Virus record (IMG/VR): IMGVR_UViG_2554235185_000012
Reading direction: 5' to 3' (one strand)
DNA: 41,213 nucleotides
DNA from: a virus
Taxonomy: Duplodnaviria > Heunggongvirae > Uroviricota > Caudoviricetes
The notes under the pieces were generated by a model. That model was not told where the DNA came from. It saw nothing but the letters and a program-made list of their open reading frames with translations, and ran no database searches. The position numbers were made by a program, and so were the translations under genes. Position 1 is the stretch's first letter. Each line of letters starts with the position of its first letter. Shown here piece by piece: positions 14,732 to 41,213 of the stretch.

Positions 14732-15211
14732 CTAGAGCAGACCTATAGCGCCACCGGCAATAGCAGTAAGTAAAGGATGTTCTGCTAACTTTCTTAGCAG
14801 CCCCTTTGCTTCTTCTTTCTGCTGTGGCGTACCCTGAGAGCTATTTATTAAGTTATTCAGCGTCTCGATGCTATTGGTAATCTCCTGACGGTTATGATCT
14901 CCAATCTGTACATTCCCTCCGTGAATGTTGATTTGCTGAGAAGAAATAGTTGGTTGTATCTTTTTGGGGCCAACCTTGAGTTGGAAGTGTGGGCCAAAAC
15001 CGCCAATGCTAGTGTCGTAAAAATTAGCTTTATAAATTTCTTTATGTTCTTCCTTACCGTTTGGAAGGAGTCGAACAACAGTATCCCCGTCATCGATGTC
15101 GGCCATTTGGTCGTTTACGATAATTGTATCACCTGCAAACTTGGCCTTATACGGGCCGCATCTGCTGCCATCACGTTTTAAGATGTAGGCATCGTCTTTA
15201 GCTGTAAACAT
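14732..15211 (-). CDS. Orphan cargo protein (159 aa), antisense between Q and holin; function unknown
   Basis: AGGAGT Shine-Dalgarno 5 nt before the ATG; AT-rich; hydrophobic C-terminal tail LLTAIAGGAIGLL; terminators on both sides. Confidence 0.6.
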   Translation of the reverse strand: MFTAKDDAYILKRDGSRCGPYKAKFAGDTIIVNDQMADIDDGDTVVRLLPNGKEEHKEIYKANFYDTSIGGFGPHFQLKVGPKKIQPTISSQQINIHGGNVQIGDHNRQEITNSIETLNNLINSSQGTPQQKEEAKGLLRKLAEHPLLTAIAGGAIGLL

Positions 15212-16830: not shown

Positions 16831-17391
16831 TTAAAGTACCCACCAGCGGATCGATTCCGTGGGTATGGTTGCAGCCTCGACTTGATGAACAATTCCCAAC
16901 TCGGAGGCCCTTCCGGGATGAAGGATGGTTGCCGAAGTGATCAAATCCTTCCAATCAGCAATCTCACTTGGATTTTTCTTTTTTGTTTCAATATCCATGA
17001 TTTGAATAAATCGATTTAGATCGTCATCGAGGCATGAAGCCCATTCTCTCAATCGTAGGTGATCTGCGCTGGGTGCGGCGAACCCCCAATGCAGTGGGTG
17101 AAGAAGGAAGCGAGAAAGTGGGTTGGCAGTTCGCACTTCTCCAGCCATATAGATCACGTTTGCGATTGATTCAACATTACTGAGGTTATGCGTAGTAACC
17201 TTTACACCAAGTGACTTTAAAAAATTGTAAGCAGTAAAGCCTGAAACTGTATCTCCACCTTTGCTGGAAATATAGAGCTTAATTTCTGTTGCTGGTTGAT
17301 TAGTATTTGAAACTGCTTTTAAGCAGACATCCATCAGATTAGTTACAGAGGCAACTGTAACATCTGTCAAAAAATGTACCGTATGGATCAT
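16831..17391 (-). CDS. ClpP-fold serine protease-like protein (Ser/His retained), cargo gene
   Basis: Aligns by eye to ClpP: ISSKGGDTVSG vs INSPGGVITAG, VESIA vs AASMG (Ser75), RFLLHPL vs RVMIHQPL (His98); GAGGAG Shine-Dalgarno; AT-rich. Confidence 0.7.
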   Translation of the reverse strand: MIHTVHFLTDVTVASVTNLMDVCLKAVSNTNQPATEIKLYISSKGGDTVSGFTAYNFLKSLGVKVTTHNLSNVESIANVIYMAGEVRTANPLSRFLLHPLHWGFAAPSADHLRLREWASCLDDDLNRFIQIMDIETKKKNPSEIADWKDLITSATILHPGRASELGIVHQVEAATIPTESIRWWVL

Positions 17392-17469: not shown

Positions 17470-18018
17470 CTAGCTCTGTGGCGTGCTTAAGCATTTTGCT
17501 TCGTAATGTACCCTCATGGAAAACATAGCGAATAACATAATGAGCTTATCGCGTAAGCTTGTAGAGGATCCCGTGAAACTTACAACCCTAGTTTCTGCTC
17601 CGTAAACCCCAAGCTTAAAATCTCTAATGGGGGTCAAGCTATCAGGGTAACCGTGCTCCATTAGACTTGTTAAGGAGTCAATCTCACTGTTAGTGATGTC
17701 AGAGTTGTTAATTTGATGTGAACGTTTGTTTCTGAAGTTGTTGAACCTTCGAATAAATTTGTTTAGCTCTGAGCTCATCCCATAGTTCATCGCAAGCTGA
17801 GCTTTAATGGCAAAATCCATGTTGATATTTTCGCCAAAACCGCTGAAGAAATCCCTGTTACCAGAGGCACAGATAATCCAAGCTTCCAAGATTTGTTCAA
17901 TCAAAAGGTGAGTGCGGAGATAGATACCAATGTCATCTTGGGACCGAACTATAGTCATTATTCTATCGGGTTGATGGGATGCTAAAGTCAACTCTTCAAA
18001 ATGAGTAAAATCAAACAT
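17470..18018 (-). CDS. Hypothetical protein with RNxxxH (HEPN-like) motif, first gene of the cargo operon
   Basis: AAGGA Shine-Dalgarno; motif F95-R96-N97-K98-R99-S100-H101 fits the HEPN Rx4-6H pattern; AT-rich. Confidence 0.55.
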   Translation of the reverse strand: MFDFTHFEELTLASHQPDRIMTIVRSQDDIGIYLRTHLLIEQILEAWIICASGNRDFFSGFGENINMDFAIKAQLAMNYGMSSELNKFIRRFNNFRNKRSHQINNSDITNSEIDSLTSLMEHGYPDSLTPIRDFKLGVYGAETRVVSFTGSSTSLRDKLIMLFAMFSMRVHYEAKCLSTPQS

Positions 18019-28623: not shown

Positions 28624-30456
28624 ATGGCGGAATTTGAGCTTAAGGCGTTGATCACCGGTGTCGACAGGCTTTCTCCCGCGCTGTCGAAAATGCAAAAGAA
28701 AATCCGGGGATTTAAACGCCAGGCGGAAGAAGCGTCACAGGGTGGGCTGGCGCTTGGAGGCGGACTGGCAGCGGGTCTGACGCTTTCCCTGAAATCTTAT
28801 GCCGATCAGGAAAACGCCGCCACCGGGCTGAAAGTCGCCATGATGGATGCGAACGGCGAGGTTGGAAAGAGCTTTCAGGACATCAATAAACTGGCTATTG
28901 GCCTGGGTAATCAGCTACCCGGTACAACGGCTGATTTCCAGAACATGATGCAGATGCTGGTGCGTCAGGGGATCCCGGCAGAAAACATTCTTGGCGGTGT
29001 GGGTAAAGCGACAGCTTATCTTGCGGTACAACTGAAAAAAACACCGGAAGCGGCTGCCGAGTTTGCCGCAAAGATGCAGGATGCTACCGGAACGGCGTCA
29101 AAAGACATGATGGGGCTGTTCGACACTATCCAGAAGGCGTTTTATCTGGGCGTTGACGATACCAACATGTTGTCCTTCTTCACTAAAACCAGCTCTGTTC
29201 TGAAGATGGTGAACAAGGACGGTCTTCAGGCTGCACAGAGCCTTGCCCCCATCAGCGTCATGATGGATCAGATGGGGATGAACGGGGAGTCGGCAGGTAA
29301 CGCCCTGCGAAAAGTTATCCAGTCCGGATTAAGCGTTAAGAAAATCAGGGACGTCAATAAAATCATGGCCCGCCAGAAACTCGGGGTACAGCTCGATTTT
29401 ACTGACGGCAAAGGGAGTTTTGGCGGTCTTGATAACATGTTCAGGCAACTGGCAAAGCTGCGAAAACTGACCGACGTTAAGCGAACAGGCGTACTTAAGG
29501 CAATATTTGGTGATGATGCCGAAACCCTTCAGGTGGTCAATGCACTAATCGATAAAGGAAAGGATGGCTACGATCAGATCCAGCAGAAGATGAATAAACA
29601 GGCCAGCCTGAATAAACGTGTTCAGGCTCAGCTTGGTACGCTGTCCAACCTGTGGGAGGCAATGACGGGGACCGCAACTAACGGTCTTGCAGCTATTGGC
29701 GGCGCATTTTCTGGTGACGCCAAAAATATCACGCAGTGGCTGGGGGAGTTGGGGGAGAAATTCACGAAGTTTGCGGATGAAAATCCCCGGGTTATTCGCG
29801 GCGTCGTCGGGCTTGCTGCCGGTCTTGCGATTCTGAAACTGGGATTGATGGGCGTTGGCGGTGCCATCAGTATTGTCAGCAGGATCATGTCGATGACGCC
29901 GATTGGCATGATTGCGACGGCGATAGCCCTGGCTGCGGGATTAATTATCACTAACTGGGATGTTGTCGGACCTTATTTTAAGAAACTCTGGGAAACCATT
30001 GGTCCTTATTTTGAGGCTGGCTGGGAACTCCTTAAGAAAGTTTTTGCCTGGTCGCCGCTGGGGATGGTGATCAATAACTGGGGACCGGTTGTTAAGTGGT
30101 TTCAGGATATGTGGGACAAGCTGAAGCCAATTATTGAGTGGTTTACCGACAGTTCCGGTGACACGGTCGATGCCATTAACTCTGCGCAGTGGGGCGCGGG
30201 TGCTTATGATGCTTATGGGACGGGAATACCGGCGCGGGGATACACACCTTATCCGGCGGTGGATCCGGCTCAGTCAAACAACGCCTCCGATGCCACAGGC
30301 CCGAATCCCTTCATGATTAACAAAGCTTCTGCGCCAAAAGTTGATGGCGAGATCAAGGTTTCATTTATGAATATGCCACCAGGTATGCGGGTTACGGAAA
30401 CACGTTCCAGTGGCATTGATATTAATCACGATGTTGGGTACACCAGATTTAGGTAA
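28624..30456 (+). CDS. Tail tape measure protein
   Basis: 610 aa, Ala/Gly-rich helical with hydrophobic central segments; follows the chaperone pair. Confidence 0.85.
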   Translation: MAEFELKALITGVDRLSPALSKMQKKIRGFKRQAEEASQGGLALGGGLAAGLTLSLKSYADQENAATGLKVAMMDANGEVGKSFQDINKLAIGLGNQLPGTTADFQNMMQMLVRQGIPAENILGGVGKATAYLAVQLKKTPEAAAEFAAKMQDATGTASKDMMGLFDTIQKAFYLGVDDTNMLSFFTKTSSVLKMVNKDGLQAAQSLAPISVMMDQMGMNGESAGNALRKVIQSGLSVKKIRDVNKIMARQKLGVQLDFTDGKGSFGGLDNMFRQLAKLRKLTDVKRTGVLKAIFGDDAETLQVVNALIDKGKDGYDQIQQKMNKQASLNKRVQAQLGTLSNLWEAMTGTATNGLAAIGGAFSGDAKNITQWLGELGEKFTKFADENPRVIRGVVGLAAGLAILKLGLMGVGGAISIVSRIMSMTPIGMIATAIALAAGLIITNWDVVGPYFKKLWETIGPYFEAGWELLKKVFAWSPLGMVINNWGPVVKWFQDMWDKLKPIIEWFTDSSGDTVDAINSAQWGAGAYDAYGTGIPARGYTPYPAVDPAQSNNASDATGPNPFMINKASAPKVDGEIKVSFMNMPPGMRVTETRSSGIDINHDVGYTRFR

Positions 30457-30490
30457 AGACGAACAGGGAGGGCCGCCCTCCCTGAACTTA

Positions 30491-30898
30491 CTGTGCGAAC
30501 ACGCAATTTCGGCCTGATGGGGAGCCGACAATTCTGGACATTTTTCCGCAAATAACAGTTACTTGTTCTCCTTTTTTAAGAGCAGCAGCTGTTGATTTTT
30601 CAGAGTCTTGCATCTCCATTCTTGCTGGCATGAATTCATTTTCAGTTCTGAATTTAATAATTATAGAGTCAGTAAAGTCCTTATCAATGGATTGTACGAT
30701 ACCTCTAACGGCGATTAATTTACCTTTTAACTGTTCATCGGTAGCGACTTCATTTTCTTCATACTCTTTAAACAGCTGTCGAGCAGTAGTGTTGTAGATT
30801 TCTTTTTGCGGTGCCGCAGCTTCCGTATCGGATGAGTATGAAGAATTAGAGCCTTTATCGTTACCAGTAAATATTACTACTGATAATAAATATGGGAC
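30491..30898 (-). pseudogene. Start-less protein-like antisense ORF (~136 codons); probable 5-prime-truncated moron remnant or gene with non-canonical start
   Basis: Translated codon by codon: open from stop at 30899..30901 to stop at 30488..30490, first ATG only at 30629..30631; reads protein-like; AT-rich insert between GC-rich tail genes. Confidence 0.4.
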
Positions 30899-30902
30899 TT
30901 AT

Positions 30903-32228
30903 ATGACGTGGAAAGACAGACTTCAGGACGCGTCATTTCGCGGCGTGCCGTTTAAGGTTGAAGAAGAAAGTGCGGGAACCGGTCGCCGTGTGGAAACACA
31001 TGAATACCCGAACCGCGACAAACCCTATACCGAAGACCTGGGGAAAATCACTTTTCGCCCGTCCATCACGGCTTATGTGGTGGGAGATGACTGCTTTGAC
31101 CAGCGCGATCGCCTGATTGACGCGCTGAATAAACCCGGTCCCGGCACGCTTGTCCATCCGACATACGGTGAGCTGAAAGTCTGTGTTGACGGAGAAGTTC
31201 GGGTCAGCACATCGAAGAGTGAAGGGCGTATTGTCCGCTTTGACCTGAAGTTTGTCGAAGCGGGAGAACTCTCTTACCCCACTTCAGGTGCGGCGACGGC
31301 GCAGACGCTGATGTCATCCTGTTCTGCACTGGATGACTGCATCAGTGACAGCTTCAGAGGTTTCAGTATCGATGGCGTGGCGGATTTCGTGCAGAACGAC
31401 GTCGTCGGTAATGTCAGCACAATGCTTGGGTATGTTTCTGATGCGATGAAAGTGGTGGATTCTGCCGTATCGGATGCTGCCAGGCTGTTGCAGGGGGATA
31501 TCTCGGTACTTCTGCCGCCACCATCGTCAGGCAAAAATCTCGTTGAGCAGGTGCAGAAAATGTGGCGTACCGGGAAACGCCTTTATGGTAACGCCAGCGA
31601 CCTGGTCACCATGATCAAAACGCTTTCCGGTGTCAGCCTCGGCAGCGATCTGCAACCGCGCGGCGTCTGGAAAACGGACAGTAAAACCACCGCCACGGCT
31701 ACGCAGCAGCGTAACGTGGTTGCCAGCACCCTTCGTACGACCGCAATCAGCGAAGCGGCGTATGCCGTCACCCGATTGCCTGCGCCAACAACTTCCGCGG
31801 TGATGCAGAATGCCGCAGTGGGGCAGGCAACAACACCTGCGCAGAGCACTGGCTGGCCTTCCGTCACGCATCCGGCACTGAACAATGCACCGACGGTGAA
31901 AAACACAGTTGACCTGCCGACGTGGGAAGAACTGACTGACATTCGCGACACACTGAATACGGCAATTGATAAGGAGTTGTCCCGTACAACCAGTGATGCG
32001 CTGTTTCTGGCGCTGCGCCGGGTGAAAGCAGATCTGAATGCGGATATCAACACGCGCCTTGAACAGTCTGCACGGATCATTCAGCGCACGCCGGATGAGG
32101 TTTTACCCGCGCTGGTGCTGGCGGCGACCTGGTTTGATAACGCGGCGCGTGACGCGGACATTATCCGGCGTAATGCCATTACGCATCCCGGATTTGTGCC
32201 GGTGATCCCTCTGAAGGTGCCAGTGTAA
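30903..32228 (+). CDS. DNA circularization protein (Mu N-like)
   Basis: 441 aa directly downstream of the tape measure region. Confidence 0.65.
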   Translation: MTWKDRLQDASFRGVPFKVEEESAGTGRRVETHEYPNRDKPYTEDLGKITFRPSITAYVVGDDCFDQRDRLIDALNKPGPGTLVHPTYGELKVCVDGEVRVSTSKSEGRIVRFDLKFVEAGELSYPTSGAATAQTLMSSCSALDDCISDSFRGFSIDGVADFVQNDVVGNVSTMLGYVSDAMKVVDSAVSDAARLLQGDISVLLPPPSSGKNLVEQVQKMWRTGKRLYGNASDLVTMIKTLSGVSLGSDLQPRGVWKTDSKTTATATQQRNVVASTLRTTAISEAAYAVTRLPAPTTSAVMQNAAVGQATTPAQSTGWPSVTHPALNNAPTVKNTVDLPTWEELTDIRDTLNTAIDKELSRTTSDALFLALRRVKADLNADINTRLEQSARIIQRTPDEVLPALVLAATWFDNAARDADIIRRNAITHPGFVPVIPLKVPV

Positions 32229-37539: not shown

Positions 37540-39015
37540 CTAAAGTGAATCTATTCCATTTTTCCAAATAAGAACTTTTTTGTCTTGTATTTTATGAGTG
37601 CTATCAGGCTGCCCAAACTGTTTTATGGCCTTTTCCTCTTGCTCTACATCATCAGCAATTAAAAAATTAGCTCCTTTTTGGTACCATTCTTTTTTTGATA
37701 ACCAATTATATGGTGTGAATCTATCACCATACGACTCAAATGGAGCTACGTTGATATCACTAAATCCAGCAACAGATGATGCAAACCAAAATGATGCATA
37801 ACCTCTTTGTAGTTTATTTTTTATTAAGAAATCTCTTAATTCTATTGTAATATCATTTTTATTAACAATGTTTTTTGTTGTTGCCATCGTTGGCAACGAT
37901 AACGCAATAACGATTAATGATATTAGTAAATTTGTCTTCACTGGTAAGGAGAAAGAATTTCTAGCAATCACAATTGACATGAAAATAAACGTTGGGACTA
38001 TGTATCTAATTGAGAAAAGATTTGTTGGCCTGTCACTTGAAACATAGGCAATCAACATGACTAATGATGATACAATAAGAACCTGGTCAATAAAATCAAT
38101 TTCTTTAAATTTAAGAATGTTTTTATAAGATAAAAATAAGAATACAAAAATGAAAAACACCTTTATCATGGTGAATAATGAGTTAAAGCTACCTATCTCC
38201 ATTCCAAACGCGTACCCACCAAAAAATTTGAATACGCCCATGATAACAAGAGATATGTTGCTTGTTATTTGTTGAAACTCTACTATGTGAGGTTTGGTTA
38301 TGCCTGGCAGGTTAAATCCACCAAGCTTAATGAATATAAATGATATGAGCTCAGCAATAAATATAGATGATATAGTGAAAACCAACAATAACAAATCATT
38401 AGTATTCAACGAATCTCTTTTCATTAGAGAAGCATACATTCTATATATGCAAACAAAAACTATAGGTATTATAAAGGCATATTTAGATATATCATCACTA
38501 AAAACAAGCAACGATAACATAAATACATATGGAAAAAGTAATTTTAAATCATTTTTCTTTCTGTATCTATCTATTATTAGTATGATCGCCAGCATGTAAA
38601 TGTACGCACCAATATGTATACATGCTATAAGCATTATACTTGATGAGAAAACCGTTGGAATTCCAAATACAGAAAGAACAGGCCATAACGATGCCCTGCT
38701 TTTAGTATGAGAGATATATAGCGATAGTGTTACTAACATAGACATGAAAATTCCAGGCACAATATAGTACAGATTTTCATTAAATCCTATTATTTTTATC
38801 GCTATAGCATATGGTATTATTTCTGTGAAATAGAATGATACAGTTGATAAATCCCACCCACTGAGAAAAATATTTCCTTCAGTAATATCCCTTGCCTCTC
38901 TGAATGAAGACATGACATCTGAGTTTGGAATTATGTTTTTAGCAATCATTGAGTAAATTATTGATAATACAATAAATGTTGCCAGCCAATATAAAAGCTC
39001 AAGCTTCTTGCTCAT
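37540..39015 (-). CDS. Serotype-specific O-antigen glucosyltransferase (GtrC-type polytopic membrane protein)
   Basis: 491 aa, many TM segments, very AT-rich; directly downstream of gtrB and gtrA. Confidence 0.7.
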
Positions 39016-39929
39016 TTTTTACCCTTAAGTACATACTTTGGACGCTGCTTAACTTCAATGTAAATTCTACCAATATACTCACCGAGCACTCCAATCCCAA
39101 TTAACTGGATGCCGCCAAGAAATAATATTGATACAAGAATTGAAGGGTATCCAGGTACATTATTATCAAAAATTAATTTATCAATTATCATCCATGAACC
39201 GTATGTAAATGATATACATGCAATAAATAACCCAATATAGGTCCACATGCGAAGCGGGAATGTTGAGAAGCTAGTGATCCCTTCCAGCGCCAAGTTCCAT
39301 AGCTTCCATCCATTGAACTTTGTGCTTCCTGCAACGCGTTCTGCTCGCGCATATTCTACGACATCGGTTCGACCACCAACCCAGCTCAGCACACCCTTCA
39401 TAAACAGGTTTCGTTCTGGCATGAGCTTAATGTTTTCTACTACTTCGCGAGACATGAGCCGGAAGTCGCCAACATTCTCTTCTATCTGAGGGTTGCTGAT
39501 TTTGTTATGAAGTTTATAGAACCACTCAGCAGATTTACGCTTCAGCCTGCTGTCAGTGGAGCGGTCAGAGCGTTTAGCCAGAACCATATCTGCACCGGCC
39601 TGCCATTTCTCTATCAAGTGAGGAATAACTTCGATAGGGTCTTGCAGATCAACGTCAATCGGGATAATTGCCTCCCCGGTAGCATGGTCCAGACCTGCGA
39701 ACAGGGCGGGTTCTTTGCCGAAGTTACGTGTGAACGACAGCGAAACAACAAGCGGGTCGGCAACAGCAAGCTCGTTGATAATTGATTCTGTAGCGTCTTT
39801 GCTGCCATCGTTTATGAAGACTATCTCGACTTCATGCTGCTGAAGCCCTTCAAATTCGCGCACAGTTTTATAAAAAATAGGTATCGTGGCCTCTTCGTTA
39901 AAGACCGGAACGACTAAAGAAATTTTCAT
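39012..39929 (-). CDS. gtrB: Bactoprenol glucosyltransferase GtrB (GT2 family)
   Basis: N-terminal GT2 domain ([17 protein letters not shown]) and two C-terminal TM segments. Confidence 0.85.
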
Positions 39930-40288
39930 TTCGCATCCCTAAAGACAATGAACTTTGAATAGACGAAACCGCACACCAGGCTGATGGCGGAGAAGGTGAC
40001 AAGAGTTATCATCGGGGGAAGTGCGCATCTATCAGCAGCCCATCCAACAGTAGCACTGAGTGTTCCCATGAACCCGACATATAACATGTAGCGCATCGTT
40101 GTAGTTGATGCTTTGAATGTGAATTTTGCATTCGCGAAGAAGCTAAAACTCACAGCCACAACGAAACCTGCGAAGTTTGCCAGAGCCTGATTGGTATGCG
40201 CGGCATAGATACATACACCAAAAACCACCCAGTGTATAAGTGTGTTCAGCACACCAATCGAGGTGTACCTTGCAAATATATTTAACAT
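39926..40288 (-). CDS. gtrA: GtrA flippase-like small membrane protein
   Basis: 120 aa, four hydrophobic segments; overlaps the gtrB start. Confidence 0.8.
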
Positions 40289-40736: not shown

Positions 40737-41213
40737 TTAACTAAACATCGCAGTAATCGAGGCGCTTGCCAGAGAATGGAAATGGACGTTAAACCCGACC
40801 ATCGCGCCGCTGGCACCTTCATCGACATCAATACGTTCTACATCCAGCGCGTGAACGGTAAAAATGTAGCGATGGGTTTCGCCTTTCGGCGGCGCTGCAC
40901 CATCGTACCCGGTTTTACCAAAGTCGGTACGCGTCTGCAAAACGCCGTCTGGCATTGCTACCAGACCAGAGCCAAACCCTTGCGGTAATACGCGGGTATC
41001 AGCGGGTAAATTAACAACTACCCAGTGCCACCAGCCGGAGCCGGTTGGCGCATCCGGGTCGTAGCAGGTGACAACAAAACTTTTCGTTCCCGCAGGAACA
41101 TCATCCCACGCCAGATGCGGTGAAACATTATCGCCATCGTAACCCATGCCGTTAAAGACATGACGATGTGGCAACTTATCGCCATCGCGCAGATCATTAC
41201 TGATGAGTTTCAT
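40737..41213 (-). CDS. ybhB: Host YbhB, PEBP-family protein; complete
   Basis: 158 aa beginning MKLISNDL, recognised as E. coli YbhB, the gene flanking attB lambda on the bio side. Confidence 0.85.
   Translation of the reverse strand: MKLISNDLRDGDKLPHRHVFNGMGYDGDNVSPHLAWDDVPAGTKSFVVTCYDPDAPTGSGWWHWVVVNLPADTRVLPQGFGSGLVAMPDGVLQTRTDFGKTGYDGAAPPKGETHRYIFTVHALDVERIDVDEGASGAMVGFNVHFHSLASASITAMFS

Follow-up and report, generated by a model that had tools for sequence, protein, structure and literature searches.

What is a long, protein-like open frame doing in a phage tail operon if it has no start codon? The window analysed here is the whole 41,213-nucleotide stretch of DNA, which belongs to an SfV/SfII-like prophage of E. 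coli with a lambdoid head and a Mu-like tail, located between ybhC and ybhB. Within it, an AT-rich island separates the tail tape-measure gene from the DNA-circularization gene, and the cassette that it holds runs antisense to both. The earlier note, made from the letters alone, had offered two explanations for the frame in this island: a moron remnant truncated at its 5′ end, or a gene with unusual initiation. Our analysis favours the first, as the frame is very probably a pseudogene, that is, the remnant of an antisense moron that was decapitated by a 143-bp deletion.

The island (30457-30902) is 446 bp long and has 40% GC, falling to 36-38.5% in the 200-bp windows across it, while its flanks have 52-60%. 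On its minus strand, translation from 30898 to 30491 is stop-free over exactly 136 codons, which removes the concern, raised when the frame was first described, that it might contain stops. A stop-free run of at least 136 codons, in any frame, arose in 8 of 5,000 dinucleotide-preserving shuffles of the island. The coordinates, the base composition and the shuffle test all agree with the original description of a 136-codon minus-strand frame in an AT-rich insert. The same is true of its missing start, said to be absent until about codon 90: translation of the minus strand gives no ATG, GTG or TTG in codons 1-89, and the first canonical start is the ATG at 30631-30629, codon 90. It had also been claimed that ORF callers miss this frame. 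This applies to simple callers, and the ORF listing of the window gives just a 47-aa ORF (30488..30631) at this frame, but it does not apply to NCBI PGAP, which annotates an ‘OB-fold protein’ CDS from the ATA at 30874. The features discussed below are collected in Table 1.

Table 1. Coordinates of the island, its flanking genes and the signals discussed in the text.
Feature	Position	Strand	Basis or remark
Tail tape-measure gene, left flank	28624..30456	+	PF10145, E=1.6e-26
Intrinsic terminator of the cassette: 9-bp GC-rich stem (30484→30464), then TTCGTCTTT	30454..30484	-	Terminator scan
AT-rich island, very probably the remnant of a cargo cassette (moron)	30457..30902	.	Whole spacer from the tape-measure stop to the DNA-circularization start
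Stop codon TAA of the gene	30488..30490	-	Minus-strand translation
Coding remnant, codons 25-148 (N25…Q148) of a 148-aa Sie2009-like OB-fold gene	30491..30862	-	LD91-1 and family alignments
Codon GGA (Gly) at position 130 of the intact protein	30545..30547	-	GAA or another residue, never Gly, in 042, LD91-1 and the other aligned homologues
First canonical start, ATG, codon 90 of the frame	30629..30631	-	Would yield a 47-aa C-terminal fragment; no Shine-Dalgarno
σ70-like hexamers TTGATA-16-TATAAT, 11/12	30660..30687	-	Promoter scan; inside the coding remnant
Junction of the 143-bp deletion	30861..30864	.	3-bp microhomology TAA (30863-30861, minus strand) at both breakpoints of the intact allele
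Twelve in-frame sense codons, VPYLLSVVIFTG, formerly non-coding	30863..30898	-	In the intact allele, this DNA precedes the promoter region
ATA used by PGAP as start of a 128-aa ‘OB-fold protein’ CDS	30872..30874	-	Identical genomes: WP_071593209.1, WP_071821387.1
In-frame TAA closing the frame 5′	30899..30901	-	1 base from the DNA-circularization ATG on the opposite strand
DNA-circularization (Mu gp43/N-like) gene, right flank	30903..32228	+	PF07157, E=6.3e-34

The translation had been called protein-like, with a profile search as the suggested check, and this search placed the 136-aa product well above the gathering threshold of PF12869 (OB-fold, tRNA_anti-like; 61.1 bits against a cut-off of 23.5, E=1.1e-16), with a match that spans profile positions 23-130 of 146. 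The intact allele described below matches phrog_8545 with E=1.5e-49, and the AlphaFold model of its product (pLDDT 85.6, above 90 in the domain) consists of a helix (residues 2-23), a disordered linker and an OB domain. The top Foldseek match of this model is 3F1Z, followed by the anticodon-binding OB domains of AspRS, LysRS and AsnRS, by RPA and by Stn1. Other searches of the protein were negative: NCBIfam gave nothing significant, the search of solved structures by sequence returned spurious coiled-coil matches only, and the PADLOC defence-system scan, which has no model for the family, gave no match. Similarly, the literature searched on PF12869 / tRNA_anti-like yielded no phage-exclusion work.

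The history of the frame can be followed by comparison with E. coli LD91-1, in which the identical junction carries an intact 148-aa CDS, with AAGGTGA 5 nt before its ATG and a GC-rich terminator downstream of its 148 codons. The intact 148-aa protein, listed as WP_000734912.1, opens with MKKLLKW, after which come a transmembrane helix, a linker rich in Ser and Thr, and an OB-fold domain in which two cysteines are invariant. A second full-length allele, of 150 aa and 74% nucleotide identity, lies at the same junction. In a three-way alignment of the window, E. coli 042 and LD91-1, from which the deletion junction was read, the window and 042 have …TTTACTGG-TAA-CGATAAAGG…, while LD91-1 has …TTTACTGG-TAA-TGCCATAAT…(143 bp)…GCAGGCAA-TAA-CGAT. 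The 143 bp deleted comprise 71 bp of upstream DNA and codons 1-24. The upstream part contained an extended −10-like element and the ribosome-binding site; the codons supplied the ATG and the entire membrane helix, including the N-terminal anchor MKKLLKWILYIFIGLVIIGYFAG of the intact allele. The remnant at 30491..30862 retains the Ser/Thr linker and the whole OB domain and, deletion aside, a substitution and a 1-bp indel, the latter in the terminator loop, are all that separates the cassette of the window from the intact allele.

Set side by side with an intact allele from the same junction, the frame bears out the option of a 5′-truncated moron remnant, and the comparison also supplies the intact homologue in related prophages that the earlier note had proposed to look for, with an N-terminal transmembrane helix. 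Its ‘tail of a signal peptide’, on the other hand, turned out to be an artefact: the alignment identifies the residues VPYLLSVVIFTG as the translation of T-rich, formerly non-coding DNA that was fused in frame by the deletion. These 12 codons are open by chance, which is unremarkable at such base composition. The ancestral cassette was an antisense cargo gene with a −10-like element, an AGGTGA ribosome-binding site, an ATG, 148 codons and a terminator, and a single 143-bp deletion between two TAA triplets in the lineage of the window removed the 5′ signals together with codons 1-24. The remaining 124 codons were thereby fused in frame to 12 non-coding codons, giving the start-less frame of 136 codons.

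Two other accounts of the junction were rejected. An assembly artefact does not explain it, as the same junction is present in about 15 complete-genome records, including that of the reference strain 042. The reverse order of events, with a short ancestral allele and a later insertion, does not fit an anchor that is homologous across distant relatives, Sie2009 included. In our family alignment, which covers 35 homologues from Enterobacterales and related bacteria, the N-terminal MKK and helix are found in 34, and the last, a more divergent sequence, still shows a hydrophobic stretch and a basic N-terminus; the homologue of Burkholderia phage Carl1 and Sie2009 align across the anchor region too. 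Because this region is shared by the 150-aa allele, by 34 of the 35 homologues, by Carl1 and by Sie2009, the long form is taken to be ancestral. As judged from the alignments, the glycine codon at position 130 is a non-synonymous change private to the sub-lineage of the window. A frame that is still open and carries this single non-synonymous change fits a very recent deletion and gives no positive sign of decay.

The intact N-terminus looks like an uncleaved signal anchor, and the OB domain behind it is probably periplasmic, to judge from the positive-inside N-terminus, the invariant cysteine pair and the zinc ribbon that relatives carry N-terminal to the helix. The guess that a moron at this site would encode an envelope protein agrees with this arrangement of an N-terminal membrane helix and a probably periplasmic OB-fold domain. 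The only cysteines of the intact E. coli protein are C129 and C144. Some database names give ‘OB-fold putative lipoprotein’, a reading that we rejected for want of a lipobox cysteine: the first 120 residues contain no cysteine in the intact E. coli protein or in any of the 35 aligned homologues.

Could the copy in the window still be a live gene, initiated at a non-canonical codon (the ATA at 30874 or another near-cognate) and producing a 128-aa anchorless, cytoplasmic OB-fold protein? PGAP calls exactly this CDS in identical genomes without a pseudogene flag, the frame is fully open with its OB domain retained whole, the allele is found in about 8 distinct strains, and ATA is a permitted table-11 start with measurable initiation. 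This initiation is low, however, as AUA reaches merely 1-2% of the level of AUG in standard expression cassettes (0.02-3% by reporter construct; bioRxiv 10.1101/063800), and no Shine-Dalgarno precedes the ATA: the anti-SD duplex ΔG is 0.0 there and +0.2 at the ATG at 30631, compared to −4.8 and −3.8 at the ATGs of the two intact alleles. Moreover, the −10-like element is deleted, the promoter scan of the window found no promoter-like site upstream of the frame on the minus strand, and the product would be devoid of the helix present in 34 of the 35 homologues, with its two invariant cysteines in the reducing cytoplasm. In the intact allele, the stretch that contains the ATA does not code for protein, so PGAP seems to have been led by homology to extend the CDS as far as the nearest codon allowed as a start. 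Every canonical and near-cognate in-frame start was also scored for Shine-Dalgarno pairing, and none was credible. We consider a live gene very unlikely, and the unusual initiation entertained by the earlier note finds no support, given the ATA without a Shine-Dalgarno, the deleted promoter-like element and the missing membrane anchor. The listing of the remnant by the NCBI pipeline as a real CDS, and not as a pseudogene, counts against the pseudogene reading.

Upstream of both intact alleles two blocks are conserved, TGC-CATAAT / TGC-TATAAA and AGGTGATAAC-ATG, and the deletion in the window begins exactly at the TGCC of the −10-like block. The putative promoter of the intact allele is proposed from the conservation between these two alleles only; a consensus scan gave no match at the −10-like element. 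In LD91-1, the putative −10 is overlapped by an inverted repeat that resembles an operator, TGGTAATG-N20-CATTACCA; the divergent allele does not have this repeat.

Inside the coding remnant, the promoter scan detected the σ70-like hexamers TTGATA-16-TATAAT, with 11/12 matches. From such an internal site a new small-protein gene could express a C-terminal fragment of 41-47 aa, starting at the ATG at 30631 or at 30613. In-frame ATGs are available at 30631, 30619 and 30613, a GGAG lies directly upstream of the last one (ΔG −5.2) and the terminator has been kept. Against this, chance alone would produce about one promoter-like match of this kind in the AT-rich stretch, and although the intact allele has the site too, synonymous changes have eroded both hexamers in the divergent one, where they read TAGATA and AATTAT. 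Furthermore, no Shine-Dalgarno precedes the ATG at 30631, the GGAG abuts the ATG at 30613 with zero spacing and the fragment would amount to less than half an OB barrel. A new small gene is therefore scarcely credible at all. We treat the internal promoter (30687-30660) as a chance match, in view of the loss of its hexamers at synonymous sites in the 74%-identity allele, and these hexamers are probably a by-product of AT-rich codons.

The terminator of the cassette folds as RNA with −18.4 kcal/mol (z=−2.5), is carried by the intact allele as the same hairpin, and has a T-tract that runs into the end of the tape-measure gene, encoded on the opposite strand. This raises the alternative that the remnant matters as non-coding DNA or RNA, as an antisense or spacer element whose hairpin would tune read-through or stability of the late tail operon, from the tape-measure to the baseplate genes. 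The strong hairpin lies 7 nt past the tape-measure stop codon, all late transcripts must traverse the 446-nt untranslated stretch, and SfII has a terminator annotated at the equivalent empty site, so some hairpin there may be useful. However, a T-tract follows the stem on the minus strand alone, an orientation suited to ending transcription of the cargo gene and not of the tail operon; the cassette is absent altogether from more than 1,000 E. coli genomes whose flanking tail genes are related; and the search of the island for structured RNA gave no Rfam family at gathering score, with a single spurious sub-threshold match to MALAT1. We regard such a role as extremely unlikely. Under the pseudogene reading, the remnant would be neither transcribed from its own promoter nor usefully translated, as far as its sequence signals indicate, and would persist as a mere passenger, an untranslated spacer of 446 nt within the late tail operon.

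Morons, in the Juhala/Hendrix sense, are autonomous cargo cassettes (PMC3594210). The island is extra DNA, as the site is empty in SfII and the spacer between the tape-measure and DNA-circularization genes is about 60 bp in SfI, SfII and SfV, compared to 446 bp in the window and 589 bp with the intact allele; in phage SKA5, other cargo takes the place of the cassette at the same junction. Its base composition is deviant, with 36-40% GC against 52-60%, and a GC3 of 34% in the intact cassette CDS against 57-61% in the neighbouring genes. It also has its own terminator, a minus-strand stem and T-tract at 30484-30454. Its own promoter is missing from the window, as the conserved TGC-CATAAT/TATAAA element is inside the deleted 143 bp, and the window copy does not offer what a functional gene would, a canonical start behind a ribosome-binding site where the conserved coding region begins. 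In its organisation, the cassette resembles the HK97 gp15 moron, another small cargo gene of deviant GC content that adjoins the tape-measure gene within a tail operon and has a terminator of its own; gp15 also has its own promoter, which in the E. coli cassette is putative, and its product inserts in the inner membrane and blocks genome entry (PMC3594210). Otherwise the two differ: gp15 belongs to an unrelated family (YebO-like), has no OB domain and lies upstream of the tape-measure gene, whereas the E. coli cassette is downstream and antisense.

Among 5,426 complete E. coli genomes, 54 carry the intact cassette; 78 genomes are positive for the cassette. The exact 143-bp deletion occurs in the approximately 15 complete-genome records mentioned above, E. 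coli 042 among them, and these represent about 8 distinct strains. SCU-482 is another lysogen with the short allele. Two more independent lesions affect the same gene, an IS1 insertion and a frameshift. Comparison of the two intact alleles gives a pN of 0.15 and a pS of 0.74, from which we conclude that the intact gene is under purifying selection.

What could the intact gene be doing? Judged by profile comparison, its product is a remote homologue of lactococcal Sie2009, the prototype superinfection-exclusion protein of lactococci. Sie2009 (Tuc2009 orf2) matches phrog_8545 with E=1.7e-79 and passes PF12869 with 43 bits, as members of the same two families, and hhalign of the family profile against Sie2009 gives 97.6% probability (E=3.4e-12, 126 columns). 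In both proteins a hydrophobic anchor at the N-terminus is followed by a low-complexity linker and an OB-type domain, and both are encoded by small, single, prophage-borne genes. They differ in that Sie2009 has about 27% identity to the intact E. coli protein and a Gram-positive host, its gene is in the lysogeny module between integrase and repressor and not in the tail operon, and its alignment does not reach the C-terminal segment with the cysteine pair of the enterobacterial proteins. In the literature searched, no paper was found that identifies Sie2009 as a PF12869 OB-fold protein or describes enterobacterial homologues.

Sie2009, a prophage protein associated with the membrane, stops phages from injecting their DNA, and a block of injection that leaves adsorption unaffected is established for no members of the family other than Sie2009 and its close relatives (PMC7693887, PMC4737114). 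By homology, we suggest with moderate confidence that the intact E. coli protein may be made in the lysogen, where its anchor would hold it in the inner membrane and its OB domain would face the periplasm, and that it may hinder DNA injection by incoming phages. The copy in the window, with neither anchor, start codon nor promoter, cannot act like Sie2009, and its prophage would have lost this putative exclusion function. It is tempting to go further and to speculate that the cassette represents a Gram-negative branch of Sie2009, with an inner-membrane anchor and a disulfide-bonded periplasmic OB domain that blocks the entry of DNA from contractile- or long-tailed phages, and that its adjacency to the tape-measure gene, together with three inactivations (5′ deletion, IS1 and frameshift), reflects a cost-benefit turnover of exclusion genes and not neutral decay. 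Taken jointly, these two ideas are tentative and, in our judgement, rather doubtful. If the first is true, the window displays merely the ‘lost’ state of an exclusion system.

For the window itself, the result is a correction: a start-less, protein-like frame in a tail operon is very probably a recently decapitated cargo gene, not a case of exotic initiation, and the 128-aa RefSeq entries with an ATA start (WP_071593209.1, WP_071821387.1) would be better flagged as pseudogenes. The intact allele connects Sie2009, the PF12869 OB-fold family and the cargo slot beside the tape-measure gene in SfV-like E. coli prophages, and it is a modest lead, as a cheap candidate for superinfection exclusion in a Gram-negative host.

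Other proteins resemble the intact product. The nearest solved fold is PDB 3F1Z, a putative nucleic-acid-binding lipoprotein of Klebsiella pneumoniae and structural-genomics target (Foldseek E=1.6e-5, TM 0.53/0.64). Both are envelope-targeted OB-fold proteins of Enterobacterales, although their identity is 17-19% and 3F1Z is described as a lipoprotein while the phage protein has no lipobox cysteine. Compared by description, TcdC of C. difficile, AbiP of Lactococcus and Pdp(Sau) of an S. aureus prophage also combine an N-terminal membrane helix with an OB-type domain; the conserved domain of TcdC matches PF12869 by profile comparison (PMC3575817), and AbiP and Pdp(Sau) are anti-phage proteins (PMC10127798). 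These last two act by abortive infection through a cytoplasmic nucleic-acid-binding domain, whereas the domain of the E. coli protein is probably periplasmic. Finally, the homologues in Pantoea and Serratia are chromosomal and not prophage-borne, just as HK97 gp15 has chromosomal relatives outside prophages (PMC3594210), so the family may have other roles.

The AT-rich insert that the earlier note had seen in the GC-rich tail module measures 446 bp and has 40% GC (36-38.5% in 200-bp windows, against 52-60% in the flanks), spanning from the stop of the tape-measure gene (30456; PF10145, phage minor tail/tape measure) to the start of the DNA-circularization gene (30903; PF07157, DNA circularization N-terminus). 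Translation of all three minus-strand frames between 30440 and 30960 confirmed the earlier codon-by-codon reading: one frame is stop-free from 30898 down to 30491, giving 136 codons, and ATG, GTG and TTG are absent from it until codon 90, the ATG at 30631, which is preceded only by the near-cognates ATA 30874, ATC 30799 and CTG 30775 and then by an ATC/ATT/ATA cluster from 30715 down. Because this first canonical start comes so late, a mechanical ORF list shows only a 47-aa ORF. The open frame is no product of chance, as only 8 shuffles contained at least 136 stop-free codons in any frame when the island was shuffled 5,000 times with its dinucleotides preserved, and its translation is indeed protein-like, matching Pfam PF12869 (tRNA_anti-like OB-fold) with 61 bits (gathering cut-off 23.5).

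This frame is real and derived from a protein gene, and we consider it very probable that it is a pseudogene, recently truncated at its 5′ end, of a moron for a membrane-anchored, Sie2009-like OB-fold protein. When the region 30300-31050 was compared by megablast with 5,426 complete E. coli genomes, the full-length matches fell into two classes: one is collinear with the window (15 records, including strain 042, and SCU-482 at 100% identity), while the second, larger class matches in two pieces that together span 894 bp, compared with 751 bp. In LD91-1, which represents the second class, PGAP annotates a minus-strand 148-aa 'OB-fold protein' that begins MKKLLKWILYIFIGLVIIGYFAGNNDKGSNSS… and has AAGGTGA at optimal spacing before its ATG. 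In a three-way alignment (A1), the window and 042 lack exactly 143 bp present in LD91-1, which reads …TTTACTGG-TAA-TGCCATAAT…GCAGGCAA-TAA-CGATAAAGG… where the window reads …TTTACTGG-TAA-CGATAAAGG…. Since TAA stands at both breakpoints in LD91-1 and once in the window, the deletion took place between two TAA triplets, and with it went 71 bp upstream of the ATG together with codons 1-24. The apparent tail of a signal peptide in the truncated frame is therefore an illusion, as its first twelve codons, VPYLLSVVIFTG, correspond in the intact allele to DNA upstream of the control region; the real gene does begin with a membrane helix.

Coordinates and initiation signals of the features discussed
Feature	Coordinates	Strand	Remarks
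Deletion junction	30861-30864		window; alignment A1
Authentic coding sequence	30862→30491	-	N25 to Q148, from A1
Twelve codons VPYLLSVVIFTG	30898-30863	-	upstream DNA of the intact allele, stop-free by happenstance
In-frame TAA	30901-30899	-	closes the 136-codon frame on its upstream side
Stop codon TAA	30490-30488	-	ends the 136-codon frame
Intact ATG, LD91-1			anti-Shine-Dalgarno duplex ΔG −4.8 kcal/mol
Intact ATG, divergent allele (L006)			anti-Shine-Dalgarno duplex ΔG −3.8 kcal/mol
Window ATA	30874		anti-Shine-Dalgarno duplex ΔG 0.0 kcal/mol
Window ATG	30631		anti-Shine-Dalgarno duplex ΔG +0.2 kcal/mol
Window ATG	30613		anti-Shine-Dalgarno duplex ΔG −5.2 kcal/mol, but GGAG abuts the ATG
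159-aa phrog_16834 protein	14732-15211	-	
186-aa ClpP-like protease	16831-17391	-	PF00574; nearest PHROGs 'head maturation protease'
182-aa phrog_5483 protein	17470-18018	-	

The long form is the ancestral one, because a divergent full-length allele occupies the same junction, homologues share the N-terminus, and the intact gene is under purifying selection. The divergent allele (L006; 74% nucleotide identity, 150 aa) lies antisense between the tape-measure and DNA-circularization genes in other E. coli genomes. In the family protein alignment (A3; Enterobacterales and beyond), 34 of the 35 homologues begin with MKK and a hydrophobic helix, the remaining, more divergent one having a basic N-terminus and a hydrophobic stretch; all 35 have a variable linker rich in Ser and Thr, and two cysteines of their OB domain are invariant. 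Comparison of the two intact alleles gives pN 0.15 and pS 0.74 (saturated), hence the strong purifying selection. Outside the deletion, two changes separate the window from the LD91-1 cassette (A1), a single substitution and an indel of 1 bp in the loop of the terminator. The deletion is accordingly recent, so that the openness of the remaining frame is uninformative about constraint, either way. The substitution is non-synonymous (Glu130→Gly, codon 30547-30545, minus strand), and no aligned homologue has Gly at this position.

The upstream regions of the two intact alleles (alignment A4) are poorly conserved except for two blocks: TGC-CATAAT / TGC-TATAAA, an extended −10-like element ~60 nt before the ATG, and AGGTGATAAC-ATG. 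The window's deletion starts exactly at TGCC, and both blocks are lost. A consensus scan picked up no promoter-like site ahead of the window's frame and none in the intact allele either, so the assignment of the first block as a putative promoter element of the intact alleles comes from conservation only. In LD91-1 (L002 2175-2210), an 8-bp perfect inverted repeat, TGGTAATG-N20-CATTACCA, brackets this putative −10 element; the window's deletion has its left breakpoint within the promoter-distal arm, nearer the DNA-circularization gene, and the repeat is absent from the divergent allele.

The earlier note had offered two alternatives, a 5′-truncated moron remnant or a gene with unusual initiation. 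The 143-bp deletion relative to LD91-1 upholds the former, and we reject exotic initiation: ATA 30874 (ΔG 0.0) and ATG 30631 (ΔG +0.2) have no useful anti-Shine-Dalgarno pairing, and the GGAG at ATG 30613 is left without spacing. In standard expression cassettes, AUA initiates at ~1-2% of the level of AUG (0.02-3% by reporter construct; bioRxiv 10.1101/063800). PGAP/RefSeq nevertheless presents 30488-30874 (minus strand) as an ordinary CDS of 128 aa starting at ATA, not flagged as a pseudogene (WP_071593209.1 in SCU-482, identical to the window; WP_071821387.1 in 042), so the expectation that ORF callers miss the frame holds for the mechanical list but not for PGAP. In our view homology drove this annotation and a pseudogene should stand in its place, and we infer that the truncated remnant is silent. 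The terminator of the cassette is intact, with a 9-bp GC-rich stem (30484-30464), a T-tract on the minus strand and a fold of −18.4 kcal/mol. Within the coding remnant there is also a near-consensus σ70-like TTGATA-16-TATAAT (30687-30660, minus strand, 11/12), which the intact allele shares; it is degraded at synonymous sites in the 74%-identity allele, and so is probably a by-product of AT-rich codons.

Among the 78 cassette-positive genomes, 54 carry the full-length gene and about 15 records this deletion, while in two (EJN001 and EBJ001; L007 2248-3311 in EJN001) an IS1 element cuts off the 3′ end of the gene and also takes prophage DNA to its left. In P0002, from public assemblies (8 member sequences), a frameshift in the GAAAAAATG A-run leads to a 161-aa product, for which a homopolymer sequencing error is possible. 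Thus, the OB-fold gene has been inactivated in at least three separate ways.

The intact 148-aa protein belongs to phrog_8545, 'superinfection exclusion Sie-like' (E=1.5e-49); PADLOC and NCBIfam searches with it returned nothing. Its AlphaFold model, built on the family alignment, is confident (pLDDT 85.6) and consists of a helix (2-23), a disordered linker (24-44) and a β-rich domain. Among solved structures, 3F1Z (a Klebsiella 'putative nucleic acid-binding lipoprotein') comes closest, followed by class II tRNA synthetases (their OB anticodon-binding domains), RPA and Stn1, and the viral structure matches are named 'tRNA_anti-like' and 'host cell surface-exposed lipoprotein'. The phrog_8545 label comes, as an exact product name, from Tuc2009 orf2, which is sie2009 (Lactococcus phage, L009 1339-1860). 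Sie2009 itself matches phrog_8545 (E=1.7e-79), which it shares with the E. coli and Burkholderia phage proteins, passes the Pfam threshold for PF12869 (43 bits) and aligns with the enterobacterial family profile (97.6% probability, E=3.4e-12) over 126 columns comprising anchor, linker and most of the OB domain. We found no paper linking Sie2009 to the PF12869 OB-fold family, and its place there, with relatives in the tail-operon cargo slot of E. coli prophages, is a side observation possibly worth following.

Sie2009, a small prophage protein, associates with the membrane, has a hydrophobic N-terminus and stops DNA injection by heterologous lactococcal phages (PMC7693887, PMC4737114). However, the intact E. 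coli protein is only about 27% identical to it, and our literature search found no experiments on any Gram-negative family member. By analogy, the intact allele may exclude superinfecting phages, a tentative proposal to which we give somewhat less than even chances; remote homology to Sie2009 and genomic context suggest that the protein would act at the inner membrane, on its periplasmic side, to block the entry of phage DNA. An N-in, OB-out topology, with the OB domain in the periplasm, is favoured by the N-terminal lysines, the invariant cysteine pair and the zinc ribbon that some relatives have on the N-terminal side of the membrane helix. Alignment A3 contains no lipobox cysteine, so the protein would be signal-anchored rather than a lipoprotein. 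A homologue with 47% identity in Burkholderia phage Carl1 is encoded downstream of the immunity repressor, in the same orientation and with its own terminator; this linkage, the topology signs and the missing lipobox support a lysogen-expressed, extracytoplasmic role.

Klebsiella phage ST405-OXA48phi1.2 (L010 3132-3800) encodes, antisense among baseplate genes, a 222-aa relative that combines a zinc ribbon at its N-terminus with a PF12869 OB domain; its record name, 'hydrogenase maduration factor', is probably a mis-annotation. Pantoea and Serratia homologues (L012-L017; 60-65% identity) occupy chromosomal settings without recognisable phage genes: in Pantoea their neighbours are copCD-yebY and a WapI-like gene, in Serratia DUF4136/DUF4377 genes. 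Members of the family thus also occur outside prophages, which calls for caution about the proposed exclusion role.

The window holds a whole prophage flanked by ybhC (pectinesterase family, 1-1284) and ybhB (PEBP family, 40737-41213), presumably the classical lambda attB neighbourhood; its ends (1-2489 and 40737-41213) comprise these flanks and a lambda-type integrase with an arm-binding domain. Besides this integrase, the modules include CI- and CII-like regulators, terminase, an HK97-type capsid, a contractile Mu-like tail, a tail fibre and gtrA-gtrB-gtr(type). At the tape-measure/DNA-circularization locus the nearest sequenced phages are SfI, SfII, SfV and SfIV, and in SfV-like phages this junction is a cargo slot, or hot spot, with four observed states: no cargo and a small terminator in SfI, SfII and SfV (SfII: L004 461-520); an unrelated ORF of 170 aa on the plus strand (phrog_8976) in phage SKA5 (L003 1737-2249); the minus-strand OB-fold cassette in 78 of the 5,426 E. 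coli genomes; and its decapitated derivative in the window (30457-30902). The earlier suggestion of a moron is well founded: by the classical criteria (PMC3594210) the cassette is one, being additional DNA of deviating GC content that has a terminator of its own and, when intact, probably also its own promoter. In organisation it resembles the HK97 gp15 moron, which lies beside the tape-measure gene and whose product is also an inner-membrane exclusion protein (PMC3594210).

Just before the terminase, three minus-strand ORFs among plus-strand genes (table) may be further morons. The O-antigen glucosylation module (37540-40288, minus strand) contains gtrA (39926-40288), gtrB (39012-39929) and then a 491-aa type-specific ORF (37540-39015, minus strand) with no Pfam match, and fits a serotype-converting phage, SfV/SfII-like, that resides in E. 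coli.
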